A stretch of 64,000 nucleotides of DNA. It comes from Oceanicoccus sp. Its GTDB lineage: Bacteria > Pseudomonadota > Gammaproteobacteria > Pseudomonadales > Dasaniaceae. Shown in pieces: positions 38,247 to 46,851 of the stretch; positions within the stretch are counted from its first letter, which is position 1, and every line of letters begins with the position of its first letter. The DNA is taken from positions 62,455-126,454 of the forward strand of contig CBFIDJ010000013.1 of assembly GCA_965661375.1 (NCBI GenBank), written 5' to 3'. The position numbers were made by a program, and so were the translations under genes. The notes under the pieces were generated by a model, which was not told the origin of the DNA, did not search any database, and was given only the letters and a program-made list of their open reading frames with translations.

Positions 38247-38933
38247 CTAGAAAAAGGTGGGATTAAAGTAGTGGCGACCATTGCGGATATTTAGCAGATA
38301 GTCCACCAACTGCTCATAATCCCGCTGCCGAGTGACAATGTCCAACTCATCGGCATTCACAATGAGCAGCGGCGCATCGTCGTAATACAGGAAAAATTCA
38401 CTGTACGCTTCATTAATATGCTCCAGATACTGCCTGGAAATGCGCTGTTCAAACTCAATGCCCCGGCTTTCGATGCGAGAGAGTAGTACGTCTACCGAGG
38501 CCTGTAAATAGATAACCAGATCGGGTTTGGGGGCGTCGATGGTCAATTGCTGGTAGACCTTATCGTAGAGCAGGAATTCATCCTCGTCGAGATTGAGTTT
38601 GGCGAAGAGTCTATCCTTCTCAATTAAAAAATCGGAAACCTGCACCGGCTCAAAAATATCGCCCTGGCGTAAATCCTGAATTTGCTGGCTGCGCTGGAAC
38701 AGAAAAAACAATTGGGTGGCCAAGGCAGCATTTTTCTGGTTTTGATAGAAGCGTTCCAGAAAGGGATTCTCTTCTGCCTTTTCCAATAAGGTCTGGTAGT
38801 TGAATGTATCCGCCAGTTGTTTTGCGAGCGTAGTCTTGCCAACGCCGATGGCACCCTCTACTGCAATAAACAGCGGAGGGGTACGATTTTGTAAATCTAT
38901 CATGGGTTGGACCGCGTCCTGAATCACATCCAC
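38247..38933 (-). CDS. Deoxynucleoside kinase family protein
   Basis: IAVEGAIGVGKTT P-loop, ENPFLERFY, PDLVIYLQA; folK-dNK-panB order. Confidence 0.92.
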   Translation of the reverse strand: MDVIQDAVQPMIDLQNRTPPLFIAVEGAIGVGKTTLAKQLADTFNYQTLLEKAEENPFLERFYQNQKNAALATQLFFLFQRSQQIQDLRQGDIFEPVQVSDFLIEKDRLFAKLNLDEDEFLLYDKVYQQLTIDAPKPDLVIYLQASVDVLLSRIESRGIEFEQRISRQYLEHINEAYSEFFLYYDDAPLLIVNADELDIVTRQRDYEQLVDYLLNIRNGRHYFNPTFF

Positions 38934-39533: not shown

Positions 39534-40922
39534 TTAGTGATTATTGCTGTGTGGCTTGCGGCGTGAGCGGCGTTTTTTCGGGGGGTGATCTTGCACCGCC
39601 TTCGCCATAGCAAGTTGCTCATCCGGGCTGCGATTCTGGTAGTCGGTCCACCATTTGGTCAGCTCGCCAAGATCTTCACCAGCCTGTTCCCTTAACAGTA
39701 GAAAGTCGTAGGCCGCACGAAAGCGGCGATTTTCAAACAGTTGCTCGGCCTTGTGGCCACCGCGACGCGGGAGTCGTAATTGCAGATCCCAGATTTCCTT
39801 CATCGGTAGGCTAAAGCGTTTAGGAATAGCCGTCGATTTTTGCTGTTCGGTAACGGCTTCCTGGGCGGCCTGATGCATGGCGGCGATTTCATTCTGTCCT
39901 TCATTACACAATTGTTGCTTACGGCGATGCACCACTGGCCATAACATGACAGCAAAGATAAAAGCCGGTGTTACAGGTTTACCCTGTCGGATTCGGATGT
40001 CAGTATTTCTCAGTCCTTGCACAATCAACTCTTCCGCCAGAGGTTCGTTAAGGTCACGATAAGTTTGTGGAAATAAGGGTTGGAATAATTGATATTTCAG
40101 TAGTAGCTCATAGACGGCTACCCCGTATCCGGACATAAGCAGTTTTAAAACCTCATCAAACATACGCGCGGCGGGAATGTCCCGCAGTGAGGCGGCGAGA
40201 CGGATGATCGGTTCTGCGGTTTTTTCATCAATCGTGAAATCCAGTTTGCCAGCAAAGCGCATTACCCGCAGCATGCGAACCGGGTCTTCCTTATAGCGGG
40301 TTTCCGGATCGCCGATAATGCGGATGACACGGTTGTGTAAATCCTGCAGTCCATTAGTGTAATCGTACACAGAAAAGTCGGCATTGGAGTAATACAGCGC
40401 GTTGATGGTTAAGTCACGCCGGATAGCGTCTTCTTCCACGGTGCCAAACACATTATCCCGTAACAGACGACCGTCTTTGGACAGTGCAGACTGTTGGTTC
40501 TTTGGGCGCTTACCTCTGGTGCTCTGCTCGGGCGACTCGTGACTGCCACGAAAGGTGGTAACTTCAATGACCTCGCGGCCAAAGCGCACATGGACAATTT
40601 TGAAGCGGCGGCCAATGATGCGAGCACTGCGAAATAGATTACGCACCTGCTCGGGAGTTGCGTTGGTGGCGATATCAAAATCTTTAGGCCTGCTGCCCAG
40701 CAACAGGTCTCGCACGCCGCCGCCTACTAGAAATCCAGCGAAGCCAGCCTGATGCAGCGTCGTCATCACCTTTAAGGCCGCGTCACTGATATGTTTGCGA
40801 GAAATACGGTGCTGGTCGCGGGGGATAATATGTGGGTCAAGATTTCTGGGGTCGAGTTTTGATACGTCGTTCCCGAGCGCTGATTTAACGCGCTTGATAG
40901 CCTGGGAAAATAGGTTGGTCAT
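39534..40922 (-). CDS. pcnB: Poly(A) polymerase I
   Basis: LVGGGVRDLLLG, PKDFDIAT, IIGRRFKIVH, RRDLTINALYY, EDPVRMLR, FRAAYDFL; ATG at 40922. Confidence 0.97.
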   Translation of the reverse strand: MTNLFSQAIKRVKSALGNDVSKLDPRNLDPHIIPRDQHRISRKHISDAALKVMTTLHQAGFAGFLVGGGVRDLLLGSRPKDFDIATNATPEQVRNLFRSARIIGRRFKIVHVRFGREVIEVTTFRGSHESPEQSTRGKRPKNQQSALSKDGRLLRDNVFGTVEEDAIRRDLTINALYYSNADFSVYDYTNGLQDLHNRVIRIIGDPETRYKEDPVRMLRVMRFAGKLDFTIDEKTAEPIIRLAASLRDIPAARMFDEVLKLLMSGYGVAVYELLLKYQLFQPLFPQTYRDLNEPLAEELIVQGLRNTDIRIRQGKPVTPAFIFAVMLWPVVHRRKQQLCNEGQNEIAAMHQAAQEAVTEQQKSTAIPKRFSLPMKEIWDLQLRLPRRGGHKAEQLFENRRFRAAYDFLLLREQAGEDLGELTKWWTDYQNRSPDEQLAMAKAVQDHPPKKRRSRRKPHSNNH

Positions 40923-41125
40923 AGAATCGCTGTGTCGATAAAGTTTAATAAAACAGTTAAATATTCCCTTCGCCAAATGCAGGCAGGTCAATGTCCGCGC
41001 GGATAGTAACACAGATACCAGCAAGCATAGCGCGATGGCACGTTTTTGATGGTAGTAGAGTGGTGTGGATATTCGATTGAGGGCGAGGTCTGTAAGATTA
41101 AAACAGGTGTCGGTTAAGTGAGGCG

Positions 41126-41222
41126 AAACGGAGGTGGTGTAACGATGAAGGGAAAACGGTTGTTTTCCCCCATCCAGGTCTCGGTTTATTGTTTTTATTA
41201 GGGCATTTTTTATTCTTATTGA
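41126..41222 (-). ncRNA. crcZ: Predicted short CrcZ-like sRNA, copy B (pcnB-proximal); boundaries approximate
   Basis: Starts about 12 nt after a sigma54 -12 element; AAUAAGAAUAAAAAA and AAUAAAAACAAUAAA motifs, 18-nt core shared with copy A, hairpin at 41144-41174, ACCUCC tail; sits at the crcZ position (cbrB-pcnB). Confidence 0.72.
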
Positions 41223-41232
41223 CAGAGATGTT

Positions 41233-41248
41233 AGCAATCGCTGTGCCA
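41233..41248 (-). promoter_or_regulatory. sigma54 -24/-12 promoter B
   Basis: TGGCACAGCGATTGCT on the minus strand, near-perfect TGGCAC-N5-TTGCW. Confidence 0.88.
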
Positions 41249-41266
41249 AAAAAAATAACTCTTTAA

Positions 41267-41279
41267 AATCAGTGGCTTA
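41267..41279. promoter_or_regulatory. IHF site B
   Basis: AATCAGTGGCTTA matches WATCAR-N4-TTR, 20 bp from the -24 GG, same distance as site A. Confidence 0.65.
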
Positions 41280-41320
41280 AGGTTTTTGGTGTCAGTGGGC
41301 GGACAGTTATTTGTGGCTTT

Positions 41321-41369
41321 TGTTACGCATTCACTCGCCATTGGTTACGTTGTTGATGAATTGGTAACA
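41321..41369. promoter_or_regulatory. CbrB-type enhancer B (three GTTAC subsites)
   Basis: TGTTAC(41321)-N16-GGTTAC(41343)-N15-GTAACA(41364); TGTTAC/GTAACA is the reported CbrB site at Pseudomonas crcZ. Confidence 0.75.
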
Positions 41370-41541
41370 ACCTGTTTCAAGCTTTTAGGGTTTTAACAAC
41401 TACTTGCAATCAACAAAAAAAATGATTGAAGCAATTGCTATATCGAAGAGTGTTTGCCCAGGAAGTGATGAGCATTAGAGGTGAGATCGAGAGCCAAGGA
41501 TCAACCCTATTGTATGGTGGATTTCCGAGGTTTGTTTTTTT

Positions 41542-41595
41542 GAGATTAAGAGATAGGGACTAACGAGATTGAGAGATAGGCTCTAACGGATTGAG
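41542..41595 (+). repeat. Imperfect 23-nt tandem repeat (2 copies plus a partial)
   Basis: GAGATTAAGAGATAGGGACTAAC / GAGATTGAGAGATAGGCTCTAAC / GGATTGAG. Confidence 0.8.
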
Positions 41596-41641
41596 CAGTC
41601 GTTGGGTGGAGATTAATCAGCTTGTCAGCTCAGGGGGAAGC

Positions 41642-41754
41642 AAATAGGAGGTTTAGCAGGGTAAATTGATGAGGGAAGATTTCTCTTCCCCATCCAGGTC
41701 TCGGTGTTTTTATTATTCTATGAATATTATTTTTATATAATTATTTTTATTATG
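41642..41754 (-). ncRNA. crcZ: Predicted short CrcZ-like sRNA, copy A (cbrB-proximal); 3' end uncertain
   Basis: Starts about 12 nt after a sigma54 -12 element; several AAUAAAAA/AAUAAUAA motifs, 18-nt shared core, GAAA-tetraloop hairpin at 41668-41694, ACCUCCU tail. Confidence 0.72.
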
Positions 41755-41764
41755 TAATTGTAAT

Positions 41765-41780
41765 AGCATGTCCCGTGCCA
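41765..41780 (-). promoter_or_regulatory. sigma54 -24/-12 promoter A
   Basis: TGGCACGGGACATGCT on the minus strand (GG-N10-GC). Confidence 0.85.
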
Positions 41781-41798
41781 ACTTTAAATTTCCTTTAA

Positions 41799-41811
41799 TA
41801 TCAATAAGTTA
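41799..41811. promoter_or_regulatory. IHF site A
   Basis: TATCAATAAGTTA is an exact match to WATCAA-N4-TTR within an AT-rich tract. Confidence 0.75.
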
Positions 41812-41852
41812 AAAAATTTTTAGTTAAAAAATACCAAAGTAGAAGCGTGTAT

Positions 41853-41901
41853 CGTTACCAATTAACTCGTCGACTGTTACGAAAAAGAAGGTTGGGTAAC
41901 G
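41853..41901. promoter_or_regulatory. CbrB-type enhancer A (three GTTAC subsites)
   Basis: CGTTAC(41853)-N16-TGTTAC(41875)-N15-GTAACG(41896). Confidence 0.75.
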
Positions 41902-42130: not shown

Positions 42131-43552
42131 CTAGGAACTGGCGGATTTGCTGCCTTTCTTTCTGGGGATGCCTAAACGCTGGCGGCGCTCCCAGAGGCAT
42201 TTCCGGCTGACCCCTAACTTGCGTGCTAATTCAGTCTCGCTCATGGAGTCCTGGTGTTCCAGAACAAAGCGCTGGAAGTAATCTTCGAGTGACAGGTCTT
42301 CAGTAGAGTCACCGCTATCCTCTTCAGCCATGGCGGGCATGGCTTGTTCAGAGGCAATGGTCCGTTTGGTGCGAATCTGGGTGACGTTGACCAGCTCCAG
42401 GTCGATATTGAGCAGGTCATTATCGATGCTGTCACTCTCAGAGAGAATCACCGCACGCTCAATGACATTTTCCATCTCGCGTACATTGCCGGGCCAGGTA
42501 TAGGTGGTAATCGCCTGAATTGCCTTTGGTGAGAAATGCATCAGAGCTTTGCCGAACTGAGCACAACGGCGCTCCAGAAGGGTTTCGGCCAGTTCCAGAA
42601 TGTCCTTGCCGCGCTCTCGCAATGCTGGCAGTTGTAACTGAATAACGTTGATTCGGTAATAGAGATCAGGGCGGAACTGGTGGTGATGGGCGAGGGATTT
42701 AAGGTTGCGATGGGTGGCGCAGATTAAACGCACATCGACCTTGCGCGATTCCACCGAGCCAATGCGGCGAATTTCATCCTCTTGAATAAAGCGCAGCAGG
42801 CGTGCCTGAGCCTCCAGAGGCAGTTCACCGATTTCGTCGAGGAACAGGGTGCCGCCATCGGCCGCTTCAATCAGCCCCATACGATTGGTATTCGCACCGG
42901 TAAAGGCACCACGTTCATAGCCGAATAGTTCAGACTCAATCAGTGTTTCTGGAATCGCGGCGCAGTTAACACTGATGAAAGGTTGCTCGGTGCGCTTGCT
43001 ATAGGCATGAACAGCCTTGGCTACCAGCTCTTTACCGGTGCCGGTTTCACCTTGAATCAGTACCGTGGTGTCCGTGGGGGCGACTTTAATCACATGATCG
43101 TAGAGTTGCATCATCGGTTGGCAGCTGCCGATCATTTCACCGAGGTGCGGGTGGCCGCGCTTGCCGGATTTACGGCGTTGTTCTTCAGGGATGTGCTGGG
43201 GCGAGTGGTTGGCGATGATGGTTGCTACCGATTCCAGCATCTCATCGTGGTCAAAGGGTTTGGCAATATAGTCTACGGCGCCGCTTTTCATGGAATCGAC
43301 GGCGGAGCGCAGGCTGGCATAGCTGGTCATAATCAGCACTGGTACATCACCTGCATGTTTGATCAGGTCAGTGCCCGGGGCACCCGGTAGTCGCAGGTCA
43401 CTGATGATCAGGTCAAAGCTGTTTAAGTCAAAATTGTCCTGGGCTTCCTGCACTGAGCCGGCTTCGCTAATCTTGTAATCGTGTCGTTCCAGCAGTTTGC
43501 GCAGGGCGCTGCGAATGACTGTTTCGTCCTCAACGATGAGAATGTGTTCCAT
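42131..43552 (-). CDS. cbrB: sigma54-dependent response regulator CbrB
   Basis: Receiver (DLRLPG), AAA+ GETGTGKE, ESELFG..RGAFTGA, DEIGE, WPGNVRE; C-terminal LSLEDYF...ETELARKLGVSRKCLWERRQRLGIPR typical of CbrB; cbrA-cbrB-pcnB order. Confidence 0.93.
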   Translation of the reverse strand: MEHILIVEDETVIRSALRKLLERHDYKISEAGSVQEAQDNFDLNSFDLIISDLRLPGAPGTDLIKHAGDVPVLIMTSYASLRSAVDSMKSGAVDYIAKPFDHDEMLESVATIIANHSPQHIPEEQRRKSGKRGHPHLGEMIGSCQPMMQLYDHVIKVAPTDTTVLIQGETGTGKELVAKAVHAYSKRTEQPFISVNCAAIPETLIESELFGYERGAFTGANTNRMGLIEAADGGTLFLDEIGELPLEAQARLLRFIQEDEIRRIGSVESRKVDVRLICATHRNLKSLAHHHQFRPDLYYRINVIQLQLPALRERGKDILELAETLLERRCAQFGKALMHFSPKAIQAITTYTWPGNVREMENVIERAVILSESDSIDNDLLNIDLELVNVTQIRTKRTIASEQAMPAMAEEDSGDSTEDLSLEDYFQRFVLEHQDSMSETELARKLGVSRKCLWERRQRLGIPRKKGSKSASS

Positions 43553-43679: not shown

Positions 43680-46640
43680 TTAGCTGATCTGTTCAACGGG
43701 TGGTCTGCTGAGCTTGAGGGTGAACCGGGTACCCCCATAAGCCTCGTCGGCAGGGCTTTCCACGCCAATAATGCCGCCAAGATCTTCAACGATGCTGTAG
43801 ACCAGTGATAACCCTAGACCGGTACCTTCTCCGGCTTCCTTGGTGGTAAAGAAGGGGTCAAAGATCTGTTCCTGATGATCCTTGCTGATGCCGGTGCCCC
43901 GGTCGGTGATAGCAATGTGAATCTGGTCCTTCACCCGCTCGCAGTGGACGGTAACCGGGCTGTTTTCCGGGCTGGCATCGCGCGCATTGCTGAGAATATT
44001 GACGAAGACCTGTAACAGACGCTGGCTATCCCCTATGGCATAGAACTGATCGTTGCAGTGATTTTGAAAGTCGACCTGTTTGGCTTCTTTGTTCAGTCGC
44101 AGCAGGTGAATGGCTTCATCTACACAGGATTGAATATGAACTGGCCGCAATTCGTGTTTATCACCCTCCGCACCGGCATGGGCAAAGTTAACCAGTGTCT
44201 GGACGATTTTTGATACCCGGTCGGTCTGTTCCAGAATTTCTTTAGCGGTGTTGAGGCTCTCGGGGTTTTCCGTGTCGTAGCGCAGGTTCTGCGCCAGGCA
44301 GGCAATGCCGGTGATCGGGTTGCCAATTTCGTGGGCCACGCCAGCCGCCAGCCGGCCGATGGAGGCCAGCCGTTCACTGTGAAGTAGTTCATCCTCCAGT
44401 AATTGCACGTCGGTGGTATCTTCCAGCACGATGACCTGGCCGTCATTGGCCTCGCCATAGGCGTTGACCGTGGTTTTGTGCAGGTTAAACCAGCGGGTAC
44501 TGCCCTCAACTTCCAGCGGCTGTTTGTAAAGGTGTGACTCGGTCTGGTCGCTGAAAGCGCCTAACAGTTTGCCCCAGGGTTGTGGCAACTTGTGCAGGTT
44601 AGAGCCGATCACCTCAAAGGTGGTGATATTGGTGAGCTGGGCGATGGTGTCATTCCACATCAAAATTTCATCATCCTCCCCCAGTGAGCAAACACCTACA
44701 GGTAAATTCTGTAATGTCTGGCGATGGTAGCGCCGCAGGTTGTCGAGATCGGCGGCAAGGCCTGTCAGGTGAACTTTATAGTTTTCCAGCTGGCCCTCAA
44801 TCATATTGATGTCTTCACTCTGGCTGTCATCCTGGCCGGCCTTATAGGGCAGTAGCTGGTTCACCATGTCATTGGCAACGGAGGGGCCAAGCAGGCCGGA
44901 TAAATTAGCTTCCAGCCGATAGCGTAGGCGGCGCAAGGCAAAGGGCCGGGTTTCATCGGCGGGTATTTTTAATTCGTAGAGGGCGCGGTCGACTTCGCGC
45001 TGGGCGGTGCGCATGCCCAATGCTGTGGCCAGTTGCTCCTTCATTTGCTCCGGGTTTTTAACACTGAGCAGGCGTCGGGTAGGCCGGCTGAGGTCATCGG
45101 TGGCGCAAACTTCGGCGGCGGCCTGTTCCTCCTCCGAGGTGGTAGTGAGTGCGGAGACAATGCCAAACACCAACAGGTTCAGGCCTAGCGCCGTCATAGC
45201 AGCAGTGCTCCACAGGTCGCCATAGGTCTGATCCAGATAGATTTTGCTGAACACGTCGGGTTTAAAGTCGCTGATAATCGGGAGTAGTAGTGTTACAAAC
45301 CAAACGCTGAAACCGGTGATCAGCCCGGCAATAAATCCCTTGCGATTGGCGCCCTGCCAATAGATGGCAGCCAGCGTTCCTGGCAGAAACTGCAGGGTGG
45401 CGATAAAGGCGGCCAGACCCAGGTTGGACAAGGCTTCACGGCCGGCAATGAAGCGGTAAAACACATAGCCCATGAGGATAATAAAAATAATCAGCACGCG
45501 GCGAATCCACAGCAGCCAGCGATAAATATCGCGGTCGCCACTGGGTCGATAAATAGGCAGAATCAAATGTTTGAGGCACATGGAGGCCAATGCCAGTGTG
45601 GTCACGATGACGGCGCTACTGGCTGCGGATAACCCCCCCACATAGACCATAACGGCGAGTAGTGGCGAATCCAGTTCCACCCCTAGAGCCAGGGTGAAGT
45701 ATTCCGGTGGCAGCGTGGTATCCAGCTTAAAGCCTGCCCACAGGATGGGCAGTACCGGCAGGCTCATCAGTAGCAGAAACAGCGGCAGTCCCCAGATGGA
45801 CCGTTGAATGGCTTCGTTGTTCGGGTTCTCGGCAAAAATCATATGGAACAAGTGCGGCATGGCGACGGCGGCGGAGAAGAAGATCAGCAGCAGTGCTCGT
45901 GCCGAGTCGTCCCGCATTGGTGAATTCAATAGCGAGAGAATTTCCGGGTGCTCGCCTAACCACTGGTCCAGTCCACCGAAGCCGCCAAACACACCAAACA
46001 CGGCGACACCGCCAGCAATCAGCATGGCGAGAAGTTTGACAATGGATTCAAAGGCAATGGCAACGACCAGACCATTGTGCCGCTCGTGGGCGGTGAGGTG
46101 GCGCGAGCCAAAGGAGATGGTAAACAGGCAGATAGCCACACAAAAAATAAAGGCCAGCTTATTTTGGTGGGTGTCACTGGTGAAGTAATTGCCGTCATTC
46201 ACCGTCAGGATATGCAGGCTATCGGCCACTGCTTGAATCTGTAGCGCGAGCAGCGGCCAAACCGCCAGCACCATAAATATGGTTATCAGCGAGCCGGCCC
46301 ACTGGCTGCGAAACCGAAAGGTGAGGATATCCGCCAGTGAGCTGTGTAAGTAGGCGCGGCTGATACGCCAGATCGGTAACAGCAGTAACGGCGCCAAAAG
46401 AAAAGTCGCCGCAACGCCCAGGTAATAGGACAAAAAACCGTAGCCGTATTCATGGGCCAGGCCGACCACACCGTAGATAGCCCAGGCACTGGCGAATACA
46501 CCCAGGGAGAGCACGTAAGTAAGGGGGTGGCGGATAATTTGTTCGGGGATGCGCCGGCGATCCGCGAGGTGAGCAATACCAAACAGGATCAGTAGGTAGG
46601 CAATACCGATGGCAAACAGCTGGGATAATTCAAAGCCCAT
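43680..46640 (-). CDS. cbrA: SLC5 (Na+/solute symporter)-PAS-histidine kinase CbrA
   Basis: About 13 TM segments of symporter type, then a linker/STAC region, PAS-like region, H-box AGVAHEIGNP, FDPFFTTK, GTGLGL; ATG at 46640. Confidence 0.93.
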   Translation of the reverse strand: MGFELSQLFAIGIAYLLILFGIAHLADRRRIPEQIIRHPLTYVLSLGVFASAWAIYGVVGLAHEYGYGFLSYYLGVAATFLLAPLLLLPIWRISRAYLHSSLADILTFRFRSQWAGSLITIFMVLAVWPLLALQIQAVADSLHILTVNDGNYFTSDTHQNKLAFIFCVAICLFTISFGSRHLTAHERHNGLVVAIAFESIVKLLAMLIAGGVAVFGVFGGFGGLDQWLGEHPEILSLLNSPMRDDSARALLLIFFSAAVAMPHLFHMIFAENPNNEAIQRSIWGLPLFLLLMSLPVLPILWAGFKLDTTLPPEYFTLALGVELDSPLLAVMVYVGGLSAASSAVIVTTLALASMCLKHLILPIYRPSGDRDIYRWLLWIRRVLIIFIILMGYVFYRFIAGREALSNLGLAAFIATLQFLPGTLAAIYWQGANRKGFIAGLITGFSVWFVTLLLPIISDFKPDVFSKIYLDQTYGDLWSTAAMTALGLNLLVFGIVSALTTTSEEEQAAAEVCATDDLSRPTRRLLSVKNPEQMKEQLATALGMRTAQREVDRALYELKIPADETRPFALRRLRYRLEANLSGLLGPSVANDMVNQLLPYKAGQDDSQSEDINMIEGQLENYKVHLTGLAADLDNLRRYHRQTLQNLPVGVCSLGEDDEILMWNDTIAQLTNITTFEVIGSNLHKLPQPWGKLLGAFSDQTESHLYKQPLEVEGSTRWFNLHKTTVNAYGEANDGQVIVLEDTTDVQLLEDELLHSERLASIGRLAAGVAHEIGNPITGIACLAQNLRYDTENPESLNTAKEILEQTDRVSKIVQTLVNFAHAGAEGDKHELRPVHIQSCVDEAIHLLRLNKEAKQVDFQNHCNDQFYAIGDSQRLLQVFVNILSNARDASPENSPVTVHCERVKDQIHIAITDRGTGISKDHQEQIFDPFFTTKEAGEGTGLGLSLVYSIVEDLGGIIGVESPADEAYGGTRFTLKLSRPPVEQIS

Positions 46641-46851
46641 TCTTGTGCTTTTCCTGTTCCGTGAGTACACGCTGACGGTGCTCACTGCTGTGGATACTCC
46701 ACCAGACCAAAATAATGGCACCAAGCCACAGGATATAGGGGCGATACCAGGCGGTGCCACCCTGTGTCACCCACTCCTGAATAGATGGCGTAAACACAAA
46801 GGTTACCAACATTAGCAATAACAGAGTGGGATTGATGTTCATCGTTGGCAC
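46630..46851 (-). CDS. cbrX: Small membrane protein CbrX, overlapping the cbrA start
   Basis: Two hydrophobic helices with a WYRPYILW motif recalled from Pseudomonas CbrX; 11-bp overlap with cbrA, consistent with translational coupling. Confidence 0.8.
   Translation of the reverse strand: MPTMNINPTLLLLMLVTFVFTPSIQEWVTQGGTAWYRPYILWLGAIILVWWSIHSSEHRQRVLTEQEKHKNGL

Follow-up and report, generated by a model that had tools for sequence, protein, structure and literature searches.

Gene order at the cbrB-pcnB locus

In pseudomonads, the order in which carbon sources are used is set by the CbrAB-CrcZ-Hfq/Crc circuit. We analysed a 64,000-nt stretch of DNA from Oceanicoccus sp. (GenBank assembly GCA_965661375.1, contig CBFIDJ010000013.1, positions 62,455 to 126,454; referred to as the window, with coordinates counted from its first nucleotide), in which two putative small RNA (sRNA) genes lie in tandem between cbrB and pcnB. 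An earlier note on this DNA had proposed them as miniature CrcZ-like RNAs; they are termed RNA 1 and RNA 2 or, together with their homologues, mini-CrcZ RNAs. All genes of the locus are read from the minus strand in the order cbrA-cbrB-RNA 1-RNA 2-pcnB-folK-kinase-like open reading frame (ORF)-panB (Table 1).

The encoded CbrA shares 54% identity with Pseudomonas CbrA over residues 4-1021, including the transporter-like N-terminal part, for which Pfam itself made no domain call. CbrB is 64-67% identical to its Pseudomonas counterparts over the full length. Thus, a CbrA-type kinase with a long N-terminus adjoins a CbrB-orthologous sigma54-dependent regulator, as in a CbrAB system, and the RNAs sit downstream of cbrB and upstream of pcnB, as does the CrcZ family. 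Judged by sequence identity and gene order, orthology to the Pseudomonas cbrA-cbrB-crcZ-pcnB arrangement holds. The nearest named relatives found in a search with CbrB were Oceanicoccus, which the NCBI taxonomy assigns to the Spongiibacteraceae (Cellvibrionales), and uncultured Cellvibrionales metagenome-assembled genomes (MAGs). A MAG contig labelled 'uncultured Verrucomicrobiaceae bacterium' (CAZEVP010000079.1) carries a cbrB 74% identical to that of the window together with a mini-CrcZ; it is probably gammaproteobacterial, its label being due to mis-binning or mislabelling.

Two CbrB-type promoter modules

Two minus-strand promoter modules with sigma54 boxes of the TGGCAC-N5-TGCT type lie exactly 532 bp apart, at the positions claimed in the earlier note. 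The published CbrB consensus, TGTTAC-N12-14-GTAACA-N15-19-GTAACA, reflects the experimentally defined layout of crcZ and crcY (PMC8871633). Both enhancers of the window fit it except for the first spacer, which at N15 is one base over the published range. The subsites of enhancer 1 are invariant in nine genomes of the same genus and were found in all family members. Three GTTAC-type subsites and a consensus site for integration host factor (IHF) had been claimed for each module; the subsites are present in both, whereas the IHF consensus is matched perfectly in module 1, which has one of just 6 exact matches to WATCAANNNNTTR in the window, and with one mismatch in module 2, where the geometry is the same at the 532-bp offset. 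At the sequence level, both modules therefore combine the elements of a CrcZ-type promoter, i.e., sigma54 box, CbrB subsites and IHF site. Genome-wide, 40 sigma54-like promoters were counted, and GTTAC-N-GTAAC sites were present upstream of these two only. The same enhancer/IHF/sigma54 layout is visible in the aligned Pseudomonas loci.

Two short A-rich RNAs predicted behind the promoters

The A-rich sequence, the identical 18-mer, the hairpin and the C-rich tail that had been described behind each promoter are all in place. The predicted RNA lengths, counted from the predicted start to the end of the hairpin, are nearer 92 and 83 nt than the 100-110 nt originally estimated. The 18-mer ACCGAGACCTGGATGGGG has no other copy in the 4.32-Mb genome, even if 2 mismatches are allowed. 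Upstream of it, RNA 1 has three tracts and RNA 2 has two tracts of the A-rich motifs known from CrcZ (AANAANAA, CA/ARN; R, purine; N, any nucleotide), all predicted to be unpaired. In RNA 2, AANAANAA reaches a density of 6 per 70 nt, while the genome averages 0.58 per kb per strand. Two other A-rich windows of the genome (C19:9669 and C9:144850) were considered as similar RNAs and rejected because promoter and sRNA features were absent. The tails that follow the hairpins have a composition of 31.5% C and 15.1% G across relatives (n = 66); this composition is kept while the sequence is not, and C is at least twice as frequent as G in 61% of the tails versus 4.4% of random windows.

Table 1. Features of the cbrA-pcnB region in window coordinates. 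R1 is the covariance model described in the next section; ARN denotes A-purine-any nucleotide triplets.
Feature	Position	Strand	Basis
cbrA orthologue, 1026-aa sensor kinase	43680-46760	-	PAS/HisKA/HATPase domains; identity to Pseudomonas CbrA
cbrB orthologue, 473-aa sigma54-dependent response regulator	42131-43552	-	Response_reg and Sigma54_activat domains
Enhancer 1, cGTTAC-N15-GTAACA-N16-GTAACg	41853-41901	-	three CbrB-type subsites, sequence and consensus
IHF site 1, TATCAATAAGTTA, exact WATCAANNNNTTR	41799-41811	+	consensus match; TTGAT core conserved in relatives
Sigma54 promoter 1, TGGCACGGGACATGCT	41765-41780	-	sequence; kept in all relatives
Mini-CrcZ RNA 1, ~92 nt, ends predicted	41663-41754	-	fold; R1 69.9 bits
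RNA 1 ARN tracts	41751-41741, 41734-41726, 41718-41705	-	sequence; predicted unpaired
RNA 1 copy of 18-mer ACCGAGACCTGGATGGGG	41705-41688	-	sequence
RNA 1 box, GAGACCTGGATGGGG	41702-41688	-	sequence
RNA 1 hairpin	41694-41668	-	fold, -17.1 kcal/mol
Tail 1, C-rich/G-poor, Rho-utilization (rut)-like, contains ACCTCC	41600-41662	-	composition
Spacer, 23-nt tandem direct repeat, GAGATTAAGAGATAGGGACTAAC / GAGATTGAGAGATAGGCTCTAAC	41542-41587	+	87% identical
Spacer, weaker third repeat copy	41483-41505		
Enhancer 2, TGTTAC-N15-GTAACc-N16-GTAACA	41321-41369	-	three CbrB-type subsites, sequence and consensus
IHF-like site 2, AATCAGTGGCTTA	41267-41279	+	one mismatch to consensus
Sigma54 promoter 2, TGGCACAGCGATTGCT	41233-41248	-	sequence; kept in relatives
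Mini-CrcZ RNA 2, ~83 nt, ends predicted	41140-41222	-	fold; R1 66 bits
RNA 2 ARN tracts	41220-41205, 41199-41185	-	sequence; predicted unpaired
RNA 2 copy of 18-mer ACCGAGACCTGGATGGGG	41185-41168	-	sequence
RNA 2 box	41182-41168	-	sequence
RNA 2 hairpin	41174-41144	-	fold, -16.8 kcal/mol
Tail 2, C-rich/G-poor, contains CACCACCTCC	41080-41139	-	composition
pcnB extended -10 promoter element, TGTGTTACTAT	41003-41013	-	conserved block, nine-genome footprint
pcnB, poly(A) polymerase I	39534-40922	-	TIGR01942, 527.8 bits, over cut-off
228-aa ORF between folK and panB	38247-38933	-	weak dTMP-kinase/P-loop-kinase similarity, 38.6 bits, below cut-off

Retention of the tandem pair in the family

The covariance model R1 was built from 13 short forms of the RNA; owing to a short calibration its E-values are rough. 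In the GTDB family of the window, R1 matched 18 of 20 genomes, and 17 of them contain exactly two matches in tandem. The lone single match is cut by a contig end, and completeness is 64% and 82% for the two genomes without a match. The copies differ in a hairpin signature that each of them has preserved: copy 1 reads GGGGAAGAG..TCTTCC in the family rows, with GAGGAAGAG in one of them, and copy 2 reads GGGGGAAAAC..GTTTTCCC, with occasional single-base variants. The duplication is therefore older than the family, in which both copies were kept.

In a MAFFT alignment of nine genomes of the same genus, the conserved blocks comprise the CbrB subsites, the IHF core, the -24/-12 elements, the ARN tracts, the box with the hairpin, and the extended -10 element of pcnB. 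The spacer between the modules is unconserved, and the distance from box to box ranges from 280 to 692 bp. Because only functional elements are conserved, this comparative footprint shows selection acting on both copies, as the earlier note had argued from the diverged spacer. Its view that this organism has two adjacent, separately promoted RNAs stands with respect to the promoter layout of both, but the pair is a property of the family and not special to this organism. In metagenomes, copy 2 was also present in 10 of the 15 contigs bearing the copy-1 signature, and all 15 are ordinary DNA, none of them transcript-like.

The spacer of the window contains in addition the 23-nt repeats listed in Table 1, which are not conserved in relatives. 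The extended -10 element TGTGTTACTAT probably represents pcnB's own promoter, as judged from its conservation, and counterparts (TGTGCTAGAAT, TGTGTTAGACT) occupy the equivalent position in Pseudomonas, Zhongshania and other families; a simple promoter scan of the cbrB-pcnB gap called no sigma70 promoter.

Short forms in other families

Among 401 genomes drawn evenly from the GTDB order, R1 matched 80, which belong to 26 genera and at least 14 families; run across relatives, the new model thus returns a tandem pair throughout the family and a mini-form in many others. A sigma54 promoter was found 60-170 nt upstream of the R1 match in 19 of 20 extracted loci, and GTTAC/GTAAC-type subsites accompany most of them. 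The match lies between cbrB and pcnB at 53 of 56 loci, two of the remaining three being cut by contig ends. Single or tandem mini-forms occupy this gap in at least 13 families, and a fourteenth has a copy outside it.

When loci were fetched by CbrB similarity, all Pseudomonas and Cellvibrionales-type relatives inspected showed the enhancer/IHF/sigma54 layout followed by an A-rich RNA just downstream of cbrB. This RNA occurs in a long form in Pseudomonas, Microbulbifer, Pseudomaricurvus and Exilibacterium, in one short form ending with GAGACCTGGGTGGGG plus hairpin in Zhongshania and Spongiibacter, and in two short forms in Oceanicoccus-type genomes.

Three further families differ in the arrangement of their copies. 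Family f37 (L131-L134) also has tandem pairs, in which copy 1 is longer (about 150-170 nt) and contains an internal GC-rich hairpin between A-rich tracts; these pairs derive either from the same ancient duplication or from an independent one. In family f53 (L135-L138), two mini units lie about 200-260 bp apart in the cbrB-pcnB gap, and a recognisable sigma54 promoter precedes the first only; the second unit may be co-transcribed or may have another type of promoter. In family f4, two or three mini-CrcZ matches are located on different contigs (genomes G078 and G022). One of them, L149 in G078, combines a sigma54 promoter of its own with CbrB-type sites and lacks cbrB or pcnB flanks, like dispersed paralogues of the CrcY/CrcX type.

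Partner genes and candidate targets

The genome encodes hfq, rpoN and ihfA. The search for a crc gene led to a 270-aa protein of the exonuclease-III fold encoded between rph and pyrE, which on the grounds of this rph-crc-pyrE synteny and of its similarities is taken as the crc orthologue. Its best PDB matches were Crc (4F1R/4JG3, 237 bits), with a small margin over ExoIII-type chains (218 bits), and two Pseudomonas genomes each gave one unique best counterpart, encoded between pyrE and rph.

A-rich tracts are enriched around translation starts on the sense strand: at least two AANAANAA motifs in the region from -45 to +12 were found in 32 genes, whereas control windows gave 6-9 genes and the complementary motif gave 5. 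Pfam matches of 17 of the 20 annotated candidates point to transport or to oxidoreductase/catabolic-type functions (TonB-dependent receptors, major facilitator superfamily transporters, short-chain dehydrogenases/reductases, mono- and dioxygenases, a pyrroloquinoline quinone alcohol dehydrogenase and two SnoaL-like proteins). Of the remaining three, one is a sigma-70-family factor and two lack a Pfam match. As support for targets of Hfq titration, this enrichment at start sites is suggestive only.

Proposed function of the RNA pair

We consider it probable that RNA 1 and RNA 2 are independent genes for two CbrB/sigma54-activated sRNAs that would titrate Hfq, or Hfq together with Crc, and that represent short homologues of CrcZ. 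Transcription, the RNA ends, the dependence on CbrB, the binding of Hfq/Crc and the phenotype are what we infer from the features described above. In pseudomonads, CbrA/CbrB are active on poor carbon sources. By analogy, active CbrA/CbrB would yield phospho-CbrB, which would occupy the GTTAC/GTAAC subsites, three in number, ahead of both genes; IHF would bend the DNA, and CbrB would activate sigma54-RNA polymerase at each TGGCAC-N5-TGCT promoter. The output would be two RNAs of about 92 and 83 nt, each predicted to consist of an unstructured 5' part with two to three (ARN)n tracts of 3-5 triplets, the single-stranded box GAGACCUGGAUGGGG and a 3' hairpin. Hfq would take up the ARN tracts on its distal face, assisted by Crc as a co-factor, and the Hfq drawn off the A-rich sites in the start regions of uptake and catabolic mRNAs would relieve carbon catabolite repression. 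The pair would provide about five Hfq sites in total, a number similar to that of a single 400-nt CrcZ of Pseudomonas. The hairpin, the positional homologue of the CrcZ terminator, would set the mature 3' end, and the C-rich/G-poor tail would probably serve as a Rho-loading back-up against read-through into the next module or into pcnB.

Several observations weigh against this assignment. The ARN tracts are short, which makes their affinity for Hfq uncertain. Both hairpins lack a canonical U-tract and neither was called by a simple terminator scan; the efficiency of termination at such hairpins is uncertain, and read-through is possible. Across the aligned sequences, 93% of the hairpin cells are paired, covariation is only modest, and the G/A-rich and C/U-rich arms pair fairly well also when slid against each other; in view of the modest covariation, we argue for the hairpin from its stability and positional homology instead. 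The enrichment of A-tracts at start sites could in part reflect a general A-richness of ribosome-binding regions, and a pure Hfq-sponge model leaves the near-invariance of the box unexplained. Finally, the whole window gave no Rfam match at the gathering score. With permissive filters, the Rfam CrcZ model (RF01675) matched RNA 2 only, with 16.3 bits (E = 0.082) versus a gathering score of 95 bits. The alignment comprised only the first ~48 model positions, i.e., the 5' A-rich start, and the last 10. The other permissive matches were to small nucleolar RNA and microRNA models and were discarded as chance.

The complementary comparison was made with R1, which aligned to Pseudomonas CrcZ at its 3' end, over the last ARN tract, the spacer and the GGGGAGC...GCUCCCC terminator, with 13.5-25 bits. 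The earlier note had pointed to a likeness of the short RNAs to the 3' module of CrcZ, and scores in this range back it weakly. This 3' module is highly conserved in 57 Pseudomonas loci. The Pseudomonas modules (L011-L080) have a strongly conserved pre-terminator box of their own, GAGCACGCAACUACUUCU before GGGGAGCUUCGGCUCCCC, at the same position as the marine box and with a different sequence. Because membership in the Rfam CrcZ family failed, the mini-RNAs are treated as a distinct, uncatalogued family, homologous to CrcZ in locus, promoter and end modules.

Alternative explanations

The two modules could also give rise to one long CrcZ-like RNA (~610 nt) if transcription from promoter 1 passed the weak first hairpin, crossed the spacer and continued to the second hairpin; the functional unit would then be dimeric, with an internal promoter. 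Hairpins without a canonical U-tract would permit this, and in the f53 loci L135-L138, where the second unit has no recognisable sigma54 promoter, two-unit transcripts may exist. However, enhancer, IHF site and sigma54 promoter of module 2 are complete and conserved in every member of the family, whereas the spacer to be traversed is unconserved and the box spacing varies between 280 and 692 bp. In addition, the C-rich/G-poor tails behind both hairpins resemble Rho-loading sites, and in single-copy relatives, as in Pseudomonas CrcZ, the gene ends on its 3' side with the homologous hairpin. We therefore regard the long RNA as unlikely in the window, although it is not mutually exclusive with two separate sRNAs.

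A different role of the RNAs is raised by their box. Among 79 distinct sequences, which represent at least 14 families, GACCUGGRUGGGG is conserved to 92-100% per position, the A/G position excepted, whereas the ARN tracts, the loop and the upper stem vary. It is conceivable, if rather doubtful, that the RNAs act mainly or also via GAGACCUGGAUGGGG, either as a seed for mRNAs or as a site for a second protein (Crc or a GGA reader of the CsrA/RsmA type), and that the A-rich tracts only recruit Hfq as a chaperone. The 5' half of the box (GAGACCUG) is predicted to be single-stranded, and CCUGGAUG agrees at 7 of 8 positions with the RsmA consensus CANGGAYG. Opposed to this, a scan for mRNAs complementary to the box gave no convincing target: the most stable duplex (-24 kcal/mol) falls within the part of a gene that codes for a signal peptide, no pattern emerged, and 11-mer complements were few and scattered. 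Furthermore, 20% of the sequences have GGG instead of GGA, and the 3' half of the box forms the base of the hairpin. Tentatively, the box may still point to a second partner that recognises its sequence, be it Crc, a reader of the CsrA/RsmA type or a target RNA; the ancestral ~90-nt unit would then be more than an Hfq sponge, and the 400-nt CrcZ of Pseudomonas could be a derived expansion of it.

It is very improbable that the modules are cis-acting leaders or promoters that place pcnB under the control of CbrB and sigma54 and do not encode trans-acting RNAs. About 220 nt separate the end of RNA 2 from pcnB, which follows on the same strand, and the hairpin of RNA 2 is not a canonical terminator; however, the conserved extended -10 element of pcnB intervenes between RNA and start codon, both here and in Pseudomonas, module 1 is >700 nt away from pcnB, A-rich tracts and box show conservation as in CrcZ, and in at least one sampled genome a copy stands apart from pcnB (L149). 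A small protein of ~20 residues, starting at the AUG/GUG of the box and running through the hairpin into the C-rich tail, is hardly credible: open frames of 22 and 19 codons do begin at the box ATG, and the A/G variation leaves ATG or GTG in most sequences, but the small-ORF reading is ruled out by 1-nt indels that break the frame among orthologues in loop and stem, within the first 10 codons, and, moreover, length and sequence of the peptide are unconserved, distant members read ACG, ACT, AAG or AGG at the start position, and the Shine-Dalgarno-like sequence is weak.

With two CbrB/sigma54-activated, Hfq-titrating sRNAs as the favoured assignment, the whole circuit, i.e., cbrA, cbrB, crc, hfq and a CbrB/sigma54-type A-rich RNA in the crcZ slot, would be present in a marine Oceanicoccus-type genome. 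A 2022 review described CbrAB and the cbrA-cbrB-crcZ synteny as unique to the Pseudomonadaceae (PMC8871633), and in the full-text literature outside subscription journals we found no description of CrcZ-type RNAs in Cellvibrionales, in other marine families or elsewhere outside the Pseudomonadaceae. Contrary to reviews, the carbon-choice circuit would thus not be confined to pseudomonads, and many related families, heterotrophs that take part in processing marine organic matter, have the RNA in the same cbrB-pcnB slot. As the mini-RNA family is absent from Rfam, its genes are currently unannotated. With ~85-90 nt and two or three Hfq tracts, such an RNA would provide a natural minimal sponge for structural and stoichiometric work on Hfq/Crc, and a tandem pair retained throughout a family, with an enhancer for each copy, a clean system to study why sponges are so often duplicated.

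Comparison with known regulatory RNAs

With CrcZ of P. aeruginosa, P. putida and Azotobacter, the RNAs of the window share the cbrB-pcnB slot, the three-subsite enhancer, the IHF site and the sigma54 promoter, the unpaired AANAANAA/(ARN)n tracts, and the presence of hfq and crc in the genome. The 3' module is likewise shared, with the last ARN tract, a conserved spacer, a GGGG...CCCC hairpin and a C-rich region beyond it. Differences concern size, number and host. CrcZ has ~400 nt, five to six tracts and a structured middle, whereas the RNAs of the window have about 83-92 nt and two to three tracts, and the ~250-nt middle is without a counterpart; in sequence, they look like CrcZ minus this part. 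The slot contains one gene in the case of CrcZ and two tandem genes in the window. The pre-hairpin box reads GAGCACGCAACUAC in most Pseudomonas CrcZ RNAs and GAGACCUGGAUGGGG in the mini-RNAs, and CrcZ is found in Pseudomonadaceae, the mini-RNAs in a marine bacterium of the Spongiibacteraceae/Cellvibrionales type.

CrcY and CrcX of Pseudomonas and Azotobacter resemble the second RNA in being extra copies of a CbrB/sigma54-dependent sponge. These paralogues sit elsewhere in the chromosome and are full-length (~370-400 nt), whereas the paralogue of the window is a mini-RNA, a head-to-tail neighbour in the same gap and retained family-wide. They were reported to be functionally redundant with CrcZ, and in work on P. 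stutzeri crcZ and crcY were described as two distinct loci.

Other sRNA genes duplicated head to tail, with a copy of the same regulated promoter in front of each, are PrrF1/PrrF2 of P. aeruginosa and OmrA/OmrB of E. coli, which encode base-pairing sRNAs under the control of Fur or OmpR; PrrH is a read-through species. The likeness to these pairs suggests, by analogy, a tuning of dosage or threshold, and a third species formed by read-through is conceivable. In contrast to the base-pairing PrrF and Omr RNAs, those of the window are A-rich, sigma54-driven and presumed to titrate protein. In this respect they are closer in design to RsmY, RsmZ and CsrB, in which short, repeated single-stranded motifs sequester a global translational repressor and which often occur in several redundant copies under one two-component system. 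There, GGA motifs in hairpin loops bind CsrA/RsmA, whereas the (ARN)n tracts of the window are presumed to serve the distal face of Hfq.

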